A stretch of DNA of 64,000 nucleotides from Eledone cirrhosa (Eukaryota): the NCBI GenBank assembly GCA_964016885.1, contig OZ024741.1:367536001-367600000 (forward strand), in the 5' to 3' direction. Shown here piece after piece: positions 4,285 through 45,010 of the stretch. Position numbers and translations under genes: made by a program. The notes beneath the pieces are model-generated. The model did not search any database, was not told where the DNA came from, and saw only the letters and a program-made list of their open reading frames with translations. Position 1 is the first letter of the stretch. Every line of letters starts with the position of its first letter.

Positions 4285-4894
4285 CATGGTGGCTGCCAAC
4301 TCGTTTTCGAGTACAGCCACTACTTTATATCCATGTAGGAGAACTCCTACCGATGCGCTGAACGAGTGTGACTTTTTAGTCCAGACAGCGACTTGAAAAC
4401 TCTGGTACAAACACTACACTTGTGACAATTATTGACACATAGTGCTGGTCCCATGGTACCATGTGACGACAAGTGCAGAGAGATCTCCAGATATAAAGCA
4501 ATGCCTGTGCCGTGAAGCTTTTATAGTGAGCAAAGGCACTGCACAAAGCCAGTCCCACTCTCTTAACCAAGATGATATTTACCAAAAAGAAGAACAAGTC
4601 AACATCATTGGATACCATCAGAGTTGCAGGTGTTATTTCAGAGTTTTCCTTCTCCTACAATTCTGCCTTGACAAAGGCTAAGGGGTCATCTCTCCCGGTG
4701 ATTTTGGATGGCCATTGACTCTTAAGAGCTCCTTTGCCCTTTGACAGGTTTTGTTTTTAGTCCTGCAGGATGTCCAAAGTCACCCTCCTCACCAAGAAAC
4801 CTTGGTAAGGTTGCCAGTTTAGTCGCCAAGGACCCGACCATGAGACAGGTTGTACTGGAATACATGTTACCAGTAGCACCAACTGGTGACCTGA
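4285..4894 (-). mobile_element. Non-autonomous RTE derivative (RTE-N1), full length about 610 bp
   Basis: Starts TCAGGTC and ends GGCAGCCACCATG(TATG)n. Middle part is similar to the RTE 5'UTR at 44735-44960. 3' part encodes a zinc-finger remnant similar to the RTE C-terminus. Confidence 0.85.
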
Positions 4895-5263
4895 CATAAT
4901 ACATACATACATACATATATACATACATACATACATACGTACATACATATGTACATACATACGTACATACGTACATACATATATACGTACATACATACAT
5001 ACATACATACATACATACATACATACATACATACATACATACGTACATAATACATACATACATACATACATACATACATACATACATACATACATACATA
5101 CATACATACGTACATACATGTGTACATACATACGTACATACGTACATACATACATACGTACATACATACATATATACATACATACATACGTACATAATAC
5201 ATACATACATACATACATACATACATACATACATACATACATACATACATACATACATACATA

Positions 5264-43600: not shown

Positions 43601-45010
43601 ACCAAGATCTGCAGCCTGCATCTCTTCTTCCAATGTCCTCTTCACATTTTTATCCTTAAGACGAGCAGCATTCAATCTTTTGGGCAGGGTAACACCAGGA
43701 GCCCGGATTTTACGTTTGGTGATTAGATTCACTTTTGCGCGTACCAGGCGGTGGTCCGTCCAGCACTCAGCTCCACGAAGAACACGAACACACTGCACAT
43801 CCTGTCTGTCACGCATCCTGACTAGGACGTAGTCCAAAAGATGCCATTCCTTAGATGCAGGATGCATCCATGTGGTCTTGAATTTGTTCTTTTGTTGGAA
43901 CATGGTGTTGGTAACACACAGATCCAGCTCCTCACACATCTGCAGCAAGAGCATACCATTGCTGTTACACTTTCCCACCCCATGCCTTCCGATTACATTC
44001 CATGTGTTAAAATCCCTACCCACTCTAGCATTAAAGTCACCAAGCACGATGACTTTGTCTGCCTGAGGGATATTTCTTAAAACACCTTTCAAGGCATGGT
44101 AAAAGGACAGTTTTTCTTCATCGCCAGAATTCATAGTTGGAGCATACACACTCACCAGGGTAGCATATCTTCCCTTGTCCAGCGGAACTCTCATGGACAT
44201 AAGACGCTCACTAATCCCCACTGGGAATTCTTCTAATTTATTCACCAGTACAGTCTTAACAGCAAATCCTACCCCAGCCTCTCTTCTGATTCCTTCATCT
44301 CTTCCTTTCCAGAAGAATGTATATTCTCCACAAAATTCCGTAAGATGACCATCTCCAGCTAACCTCGTCTCAGACAAAGCCACGATGTCAAGATCGTAAC
44401 GTCGAAGCTCCTTTGCAACAAGAGCGGTCCTTCGTTCAGGACGCTCCAAAGAATCCCTGTCAAGCAGCGTCCGTACGTTCCAGCAGCCAAGACTAAATGC
44501 CCTGTTTGGCTCTATTACAATAGCACGATGACGGGCGGGCCCAGGTTGTGATAACTTGGGGCCCCTGCCCTTATTGCCAATGATCCTTTTTGTTCCAGAA
44601 CCCAAATTGGCAATTATCTCGTTTACATTGTTCTGGAACATCATTGAATTGGAAAAAAAAAAGTAATAATAATAGTAATAATAATAATAATAATAATAAT
44701 AATACTACACTATTAATAATTATTAATGCACTCGTGCAATGCCTGTGCGTGACGAATATTTTTAAAGTGAGGAAAGACTGTGCACTGAACCAATCCCACT
44801 CTCTGAGCGACAGTAGCTATAACCCGAAAAGAAGAAAAGATCAACATCATCGGTAACTACTGAGCCGCAGGTTTTATATCGGAGTTAACCCAGTTTCCTG
44901 AGATGCCTTCTCCTAGAAGAATACCCTGACATGGGCTAGGGGTTCTTCACTCCCAGTGGTTTAACTGCGCGATCGGGCATCCAGCCCGATTATTTCTATG
45001 TCCCCGCGCA
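40614..45010 (-). mobile_element. Apparently near full-length RTE-clade LINE
   Basis: 5'UTR 44645-45010, single long ORF, and 3' terminal motif TGGCCATACTCGATAACGAG..GCAGCCATCATG at 40614-40650. Confidence 0.93.
41099..44644 (-). CDS. RTE LINE polyprotein: APE endonuclease, reverse transcriptase and three C2H2 zinc fingers (1181 aa, uninterrupted)
   Basis: APE motifs WNVRTL, LSETR, VYAPT, GDFNA, LLDY, TDH. RT motifs NYRGISLLS, QSGFR, FVDLTKAFD, GVKQG, LYADD. Fingers CSVC..H..H, CQTC..H..H and CRLC..H..H. Confidence 0.96.
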   Translation of the reverse strand: MMFQNNVNEIIANLGSGTKRIIGNKGRGPKLSQPGPARHRAIVIEPNRAFSLGCWNVRTLLDRDSLERPERRTALVAKELRRYDLDIVALSETRLAGDGHLTEFCGEYTFFWKGRDEGIRREAGVGFAVKTVLVNKLEEFPVGISERLMSMRVPLDKGRYATLVSVYAPTMNSGDEEKLSFYHALKGVLRNIPQADKVIVLGDFNARVGRDFNTWNVIGRHGVGKCNSNGMLLLQMCEELDLCVTNTMFQQKNKFKTTWMHPASKEWHLLDYVLVRMRDRQDVQCVRVLRGAECWTDHRLVRAKVNLITKRKIRAPGVTLPKRLNAARLKDKNVKRTLEEEMQAADLGEDWPTLKKSVYDVGRRVLGLVQRKHQDWFDEKDVHIDDLLADKRRALSRYLTAKPQERNTLHEELRDVKSRVRRSLSQMKDQWWSEKAGEIQTASDCNNTKLLYSLLREVYGPSSSLVTPIRSKDGKELLRDSQGILRRWREHFDDLLNQPSVVSEDFLNLIPESPVKVALAEPPTLVEVAVAVSKLNSGRSPGMDGIHAELLQYGGERLLQHLHSLFGGIWANESVPEDWRDAVMVVLYKGKGNRNDCGNYRGISLLSVVGKVLCRVLLDRLQTHIADCVLPESQSGFRVGRGTTDMIFSARQLQEKCIEQGLDLYQVFVDLTKAFDTVNRDALWKVLQKLGCPDKFLALVRSFHDDMKAWVNVGGNMSEPISVKNGVKQGDIPAPTLFAIYFAMVFCIAFRNCEHGVYIRYRTSGSIFNIRRFAAKTKVFTSVIRDLLYADDCDLVAHTESDMQHILNVFSDACTALGLTVSLKKTVVMYQPAPGRQYTEPNIYVYGKRLGVVDQFVYLGSTVNRYGNLDSEISLRIRKASDAFGKLERRLWGRRDICRRTKVRVYRACVLSCLLYACETWVTYRRHLKQLERFHQMCLRRIHGVHWRDHISDVEILESSMCDSIEALVLKQRLRWSGHLARMKDSRIPKQLFYGELVKGKRPPHKPKKRYKDSLKASLKDANISADTWENIAADRNKWRKTVYEGKVAFEASRIAHEKVKRDVRKGIAVALPDGEGPPMFLTCSVCARLCLSKAGLESHLRSHKVRPVVDYQAAVGDATHHACQTCGRECKSAGGLKRHAKVHELQPQPTIPSKCFGCRLCARHFRSLAGLKSHIRSQHC

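Follow-up and report, generated by a model that had tools for sequence, protein, structure and literature searches.

An abundant bipartite RTE element of Eledone cirrhosa, derived from one RTE family and probably mobilised at present by another

The stretch of DNA considered here (the window) comprises 64,000 nucleotides (nt) of Eledone cirrhosa, taken from the forward strand of contig OZ024741.1 (positions 367,536,001 to 367,600,000) in the 3.0-Gb assembly GCA_964016885.1. Repeats of the (AT)n, (GT)n and (ACAT)n kinds abound in the window, which holds a long interspersed nuclear element (LINE) of the RTE type, here called RTE-A, together with pieces of two bipartite RTE elements, N1 and N2. 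An earlier inspection of the letters alone (the sequence-only reading) took N1 and N2 for abundant, recently amplified partners of this LINE, formed by internal deletion and mobilised in trans. We find that N1 was cut by internal deletion from another family, RTE-B, and suggest that it is probably moved at present by the protein of RTE-A. Masked self-BLAST of the window recovered the seven N1 pieces, the single N2 and the LINE described earlier; two of the N1 pieces are full length (606 nt), two are 10-35 nt short at the 5′ end and three are fragments. The ends of the LINE had been misplaced, as its true 3′ end lies at 40616 and it runs upstream past 45010 to about 45140. The features are:

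4288..4893, minus strand: N1, full length (RTE-B nt 1-429 plus the last 180 nt), with (ATGT)n flanks on both sides
5770..5916, minus strand: N1, 5′-truncated to its last 147 nt (codons of the final zinc finger and 3′ untranslated region, UTR)
5997..6475, minus strand: N2, bipartite RTE element with a head of about 190 nt, which carries a 40-nt deletion in this copy
23544..24018, plus strand: N1, 5′-truncated
28052..28657, plus strand: N1, full length, 606 nt; the reference N1 for searches
28777..29360, minus strand: N1, near full length, about 10 nt short at the 5′ end, the most diverged piece (94%)
29925..30244, plus strand: N1, truncated at both ends
37707..38274, minus strand: N1, about 35 nt short at the 5′ end
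40616..41098, minus strand: RTE-A 3′ UTR, microsatellite-rich, ending in a hairpin and CAGCCATC
41099..44644, minus strand: RTE-A single open reading frame (ORF) of 1,181 amino acids (aa), with APE endonuclease, reverse transcriptase (RT) and C-terminal C2H2 fingers, intact
44645..45010, minus strand: RTE-A 5′ UTR core, with the conserved RTE 5′-UTR domain; 68% identical to N1 and about 92% to N3
45011..45140, minus strand: remnant of an acquired 1.2-kb 5′ extension of RTE-A, this copy being 5′-truncated near 45140
63587..63709, minus strand: N2-like head fragment, beyond the range of the sequence-only reading

N1 does resemble the LINE of the window. The two are 68% identical over 229 nt of the 5′ UTR, they share a similar last zinc finger, and 27 of their last 32 nt are identical, with the inner hairpin common to both; at E=1.8e-16 the similarity is significant, which disposes of one objection raised in advance. 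The four motifs said to be shared are all present in the 5′ UTR of the LINE, and each occurs in 3-6 N1 copies, but N2 has only TCAACATCAT exactly. The final-finger peptide is kept in N1 as claimed, as an exact FKSLAGLKSHIRSAH in the copy at 28777 and with T for I in those at 28052 and 5770. The N1 pieces of the window are also near-identical to each other (mean difference 3.2%) and clearly diverged from the LINE, both as had been noticed. This resemblance speaks for N1 and N2 having been cut directly from RTE-A and having diverged afterwards, an interpretation to which we nevertheless give practically no credence, because both parts of N1 match RTE-B at 95-98% and meet at a clean junction, which refutes it for N1, and because RTE-A has a derivative of its own, N3.

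The search for the closest autonomous parent, which the sequence-only reading had proposed, leads to RTE-B, a family distinct from the window LINE and with a protein 60% identical to that of RTE-A over 860 aa. RTE-B 3′ ends run through the last 180 nt of N1: positions 427-606 of N1 match the RTE-B 3′ end in 20/20 extended loci (83-98%), and positions 1-429 match RTE-B nt 1-429 in the 10 of these 20 loci that reach the 5′ end (91-98%). Nine full-length RTE-B copies measure 4.01-4.07 kb and have termini like those of N1. There is thus one junction, with a 3-nt overlap, located upstream of the RTE-B start codon, and the coding remnant of N1 amounts to the last ~38 codons of RTE-B, with no RT or endonuclease capacity. 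The corresponding skip of 3,442 nt appears in contigs built from the same organism's reads; their depth is about 1.2 million on the N1 parts and 135-2,900 inside, a fall of about three orders of magnitude in the RTE-B interior, which serves as an order-of-magnitude check only, the two depth analyses having used different identity cut-offs. N1 is, therefore, a bipartite non-autonomous RTE element that arose by internal deletion of RTE-B. In the 5′ part it differs from RTE-B by 3.3%, and N1 copies differ from each other by 3.1%. Two of its substitutions relative to RTE-B are fixed or nearly so (29/29 and 21/21 for one, 29/29 and 20/21 for the other), which points to a single origin of N1.

Further RTE families were recognised by tblastn on the collected genomic loci. 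RTE-D and RTE-E were considered as parent or active helper of N1 and rejected, being old (76-91%) and having different 3′ ends. A search with the 44-aa peptide of N1 found no homologue among longer proteins, and one with the C-terminus of RTE-A returned 40 proteins (best 52-56%) that are uninformative on the parentage of N1.

The abundance of N1 was estimated from 39 stretches of 10 kb taken at round coordinates (390 kb of unselected DNA), where 8 matches cover 3,942 bases, or about 1% of the DNA. By scaling, this corresponds to some 60,000 copies (Poisson range about 27,000-120,000), and the matches are dispersed on many contigs. N1 is thus abundant as the sequence-only reading held, and part of it is very recent: all of the best 40 matches are at least 99% identical, 10 copies on 8 contigs are identical over 606 nt, and there is a second near-identical group of 8. 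The unselected copies differ by 3.1% and RTE-B copies by 4.1-4.6%; given this similar divergence, most of the amplification of N1 fell in the time of RTE-B activity.

Insertion follows a narrow pattern. The dinucleotide AT stands directly 3′ of N1 in 46/46 distinct full-length copies (ATAT 23, ATGT 21, ATAC 1, ATGC 1), and an alternating purine-pyrimidine tract lies 25-60 nt upstream in 34 of the 46, compared to 6.5% of background windows, so that insertion in (AT)n/(ATGT)n is about 11-fold over background. Repeats of at least 8 nt resembling target site duplications (TSDs) flank 35/46 copies, against 26% in mismatched pairs. This bears on whether the copies could stem from segmental duplication or gene conversion instead of retrotransposition. 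Two N1 copies of the window abut the 3′ end of a LINE of the restriction-like endonuclease (RLE) type in the same arrangement, and C12 has RTE-B fragments at intervals of about 60 kb, as duplication would have it. On the other hand, similarity does not extend beyond the elements; where the N1 copies are 95% alike, the RLE pieces that flank them reach 78-81%; the identical copies have different flanks on their 8 contigs; and informative TSDs, 11-12 nt long and unique, were found in 3/46 copies (L011, L012 and L029). Duplication, the other objection anticipated earlier, is refuted by these flanks and TSDs, and we grant it scarcely any likelihood. The RTE-B fragments in question, seven in number (L135-L141, C12:17.03-17.43 Mb) and equal-scoring, form a tandem segmental array.

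The earlier description of N1 as an internally deleted RTE without a tRNA head agrees with the single junction and with the results of RNA searches. ARAGORN finds no tRNA in the window, and Rfam gives no match at gathering threshold in four loci and microsatellite noise only at E<=5. With no tRNA, 5S or 7SL head, and a 5′ end that is RTE-B's own, N1 is not a SINE (short interspersed nuclear element) in the strict sense. A descriptor of our own for ribozymes like that of hepatitis delta virus, run without a positive control, gave no strict match in five regions, and Rfam none. The head of about 190 nt folds into several hairpins, with two-sided changes in 1 of the 51 pairs of the consensus fold. 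Words of N1 were 43-62% covered in reads labelled as about 15 other organisms; of three such runs (X5, X18, X23), two gave 1-2 N1 contigs at depth 3-15 without RTE-B interior, one, of raw reads, gave 0 reads, and trace RTE-A at depth 2-5 appeared in one of them. A wide spread of N1 among taxa, or its horizontal transfer, was considered and set aside, trace carry-over of a very high-copy repeat being the simpler reading, and these observations are not used as evidence.

RTE-A itself is young. Matches to PF03372, PF00078 and C2H2 fingers lie in its one 1,181-aa ORF, which has no RNase H match, and its PDB relatives are L1, R2 and group II only. The best 30 genomic copies are about 99% identical, 29 of them with a full ORF, and the ORFs differ pairwise by 0.36% (n=15). 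The microsatellite-rich 3′ UTR of about 480 nt is present in 30/30 copies, with AT directly 3′ of its end in every one, and the terminus of hairpin plus CAGCCATC is common to N1, N2 and N3. The block CTAGGAGAAGG of the 5′ UTR is also found in the AviRTE and Ceph-SINE alignments supplementing PMC5786205. Full-length RTE-A measures 5.4-5.65 kb, as some 1.2 kb of extra sequence lies upstream, with a precise start in 8/30 loci (the extension upstream of the ORF is seen at L064, L065, L072-L076 and L078). From its genomic-looking content, which includes microsatellites, a poly-T and about 80 nt with a ~76% match to another common repeat, we infer that the extension is captured flanking genomic DNA that replaced an ancestral head of about 190 nt. 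Stretches at L048:2047-2723 and L155:1895-2185 are 75-91% similar to parts of this extension and may be relatives of the captured DNA or earlier forms of it. Young copies at L067, L077, L081, L086 and L087 carry 5′ inversions, as with twin-primed insertion.

The other bipartite elements are older. N2 copies differ by 9.7%, and the unselected DNA holds one clear N2 for 8 N1; N2 is old and not recently amplified, so this half of the claim about an abundant young pair does not stand. Its head is 85-88% like those of RTE-B, N1 and N3, and it ends in an RTE-type hairpin. The parent-derivative link to the window LINE that had been implied for N2 is not confirmed either: no parent was found among the collected loci, where 37/37 matches of its 3′ end lie in N2 context, no dedicated genome search having been made. 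The real derivative of RTE-A is N3, absent from the window, which differs by 8.5% from the RTE-A 5′ UTR core of the window and is identical to RTE-A in its last ~40 nt. Its best 30 matches differ pairwise by 4.7% and include no young dispersed group; 24 of the 30 keep the ~190-nt head, about 85% shared with RTE-B, N1 and N2 and lost from active RTE-A, and most N3 also have the AT-type ending. N3 loci are L021:400-1018 and L207-L236, and N3 has an internal microsatellite. N4, also a bipartite RTE family and the fourth here, retains a remnant of the last finger and occurs at L021:2560-2872, L121:431-778 and L152.

The state of RTE-B bears on which enzyme makes the youngest N1 copies. Genome protein searches scored the best 104 of 100,925 and the best 134 of 24,441 candidates, and DNA searches the best 40 matches each, in an assembly of one haplotype set. 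None of the 40 RTE-B loci, 13 of them essentially full length, has an open frame above 863 aa; neither do the 19 and 19 (plus 4 fragments) RTE-B among the scored matches of the two protein searches, which ranked directly above long runs of RTE-A. The best non-self RTE-B DNA matches are 96-97% identical. The only young intact RTE among the scored matches is RTE-A. The lack of any intact RTE-B found, together with the youth and intactness of RTE-A and the 3′ hairpin and AT-repeat target that it shares with N1, suggests that RTE-A protein is probably what mobilises N1 now.

A possible mechanism is as follows. Since the 5′ end of N1 is precise and there is no head of the RNA polymerase III kind, N1 would be transcribed by RNA polymerase II from the RTE-B promoter within the ~190-nt head; an RTE protein would then bind the terminal hairpin and prime reverse transcription at a nick starting with AT in a microsatellite. 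The first amplification may have been carried out by RTE-B protein (both are 3-4.5% diverged), N1 passing to the protein of RTE-A after the decay of RTE-B. N2 and N3 could be older products of the same process in other RTE lineages, and RTE-A would have swapped the shared head for 1.2 kb of captured genomic DNA.

Several points weigh against RTE-A as the present helper. An intact RTE-B could have escaped searches that covered best candidates in one haplotype set, and RTE-C was left out of the genome-wide survey. The 3′ end of N1 keeps the RTE-B ending, with no shift toward that of RTE-A, and its TSDs, inside repeats, are mostly uninformative. N3, in spite of its RTE-A-identical tail, has no young dispersed group among its best 30 matches, an age that a simple model in which a shared tail suffices does not explain, although N3 may have lost transcription. 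Alternatively, RTE-B protein, encoded by a single intact source or by a few, could still be producing the young N1 copies; such sources would lie outside the assembly (on the other haplotype, in a collapsed repeat, or polymorphic) or have died very recently. N1 has the exact 3′ end of RTE-B, the usual basis of strict LINE-SINE pairing (PMC6007223), and one source copy could suffice. LINE proteins, however, usually favour their own RNA, so that an active RTE-B source should leave near-identical daughters, and there are none among the 40 loci, where the closest pair differs by 1.2% (over 899 nt) and the mean pairwise difference is 4.6%; we regard this alternative as unlikely, if far from negligible. 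It is a good deal more doubtful that a third enzyme is at work, be it an RTE outside the survey (RTE-C or the parent of N2) or an RLE-type LINE resembling Dong/R4. There are indeed at least five lineages of RTE in the genome, the (ACAT)n ends of RLE elements lie beside N1 copies, and 1,129 recent Dong-R4 insertions are reported in O. vulgaris (PMC13282606). Against this, RTE-D and RTE-E are old, the protein searches with RTE-B found no intact family except RTE-A among the scored matches, and N1, which within the repeat is oriented the other way round, shows no resemblance to the RLE 3′ end.

Young RTE-A copies vary in a peculiar way. Comparison of 29 RTE-A ORFs with their majority gives 223 differences, 134 of them A>G on the sense strand, and A>G sites outnumber T>C sites 39 to 5 (p=2e-7). 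About 70% of the pairwise differences are A/G (12.9, or 3.8 without them). G is depleted 5′ of the A>G sites (p=0.004) and enriched 3′ (p=0.005), and there is no synonymous bias. The A/G sites that recur are 23 in number, and 104/253 pairs of A/G sites fail the four-gamete test, which rules out shared variants as subfamily markers. Of the 5 private sites listed for the window copy, 4 carry G in place of the A of most copies, as the read contigs show. No such bias is seen in 40 RTE-B copies (196 against 160, p=0.2), and neither N1 set is significant. ADAR enzymes have a neighbour-base preference, which the context of these sites matches. The excess fits ADAR editing of the RNA intermediate, fixed by reverse transcription; an error bias of RT or conversion could also lie behind it. 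The bias matters when young LINEs are dated in animals that edit their RNA heavily, and it would offer a genomic record of editing in the germline.

Put together, these results would describe an orphaned N1, about 1% of the genome, that outlived its parent by switching to the protein of a ~60%-identical sister; RTE-A, rejuvenated by the 1.2-kb 5′ capture, would diversify mainly via ADAR edits written back to the germline, and N2, N3, N1 and RTE-A would form a dated relay series in the same AT/ATGT repeats. As a whole, this combination seems to us evenly poised between right and wrong. A true relay would offer a natural example of 3′ recognition being relaxed from one RTE family to another; it would also have a SINE-like element lasting longer than its parent, with consequences for how non-autonomous elements survive while LINEs are replaced. 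In any case, a neighbouring intact LINE need not be the parent of a bipartite element; the link of descent between the window LINE and N1 that the sequence-only reading implied does not hold.

The remaining repeats of the window are:

24034-26399 (minus), 37186-37566 (plus) and 38343-39129 (plus): RLE-type LINE pieces (Dong/R4-like, named by resemblance) with (ACAT)n ends
33916-35460, minus strand: 3′ part of another LINE, with a 514-aa open frame and a zf-RVT domain, ending at a (TAGA)n tract
39210-39647, minus strand: RTE-C, 3′ fragment of another RTE family, 34% identical in aa to RTE-A, adjoining the RTE-A insertion tract

The RLE-type pieces nest tail to tail with N1 within the same microsatellites. 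The repeat set of the window, with its C2H2-bearing RTE and RLE-type LINEs, resembles those of octopuses (PMC9115989, PMC13282606).

A literature search gave no description of these families, of cross-family RTE mobilisation in cephalopods, or of A>G edits fossilised in LINE copies of cephalopods; the families may be contained in Repbase, in Dfam or in the large supplements of PMC9115989, all of which lay outside that search. N1 may already be catalogued, for instance among the 893 unclassified SINE families of PMC13282606. The literature treats bipartite derivatives of RTE elements as common (PMC5786205, PMC7245038), and the anatomy of N1 is ordinary for a well-known class (PMC5786205): like RTE-N1/N2_Lch, RTESINE1/2, WALLSI3, MAR4_MD and Bov-A (Kojima 2018, PMC5786205), it consists of an RTE 5′ part and 3′ end with one internal deletion, no ORF and no RNA-gene head. 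A 21-nt stretch of N1 in the conserved RTE 5′-UTR domain is identical to the OegopSINE and Sepioth-SINE1 alignments in the supplement of that paper. Unlike those elements, N1 keeps the last zinc-finger codons and has zero-divergence copies beside examined parents that are all broken, and here a single microsatellite target is common to several families (N1-N4) that stem from different lineages of RTE. What deserves attention is that N1 has apparently survived its parent.

The single ORF of RTE-A, with endonuclease, RT and C2H2 finger, is like that of RTE-2_OV of Octopus vulgaris and of the active RTE of O. bimaculoides (Petrosino 2022, PMC9115989), elements recently active in octopus. Compared by description only, RTE-2_OV has 1,109 aa and UTRs of about 600 nt, and RTE-A 1,181 aa and a 5′ region of about 1.5 kb; the part of that account available to us mentions no bipartite partner. 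The new 5′ end of RTE-A recalls the 5′ switching of tobacco SolRTE (Hartig et al., bioRxiv 10.1101/2022.11.04.512097), where a conserved body and 3′ motif likewise acquire a non-homologous 5′ end in a young lineage; RTE-A differs in being an animal RTE whose lost head is preserved in N3, RTE-B, N1 and N2. In the RTE/SINE signature of Nishiyama and Ohshima (2018, PMC6007223), the base that opens the TSD is linked to a microsatellite-like RNA 3′ end, as it is here, but N1 TSDs start with AT and the insertions cluster within (AT)n/(ATGT)n. A similar state is that of RTE-2_EBu, along with RTE-4_EBu, in hagfish (Kojima 2020, PMC7245038), with a few full-length parental copies, none intact, and abundant bipartite derivatives. 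Hagfish SINEs, unlike N1, carry tRNA or 7SL heads, and what is accessible of that paper describes no identical young copies outliving their parent; LINE-SINE partners change over time there, as may be the case for N1, RTE-B and RTE-A.

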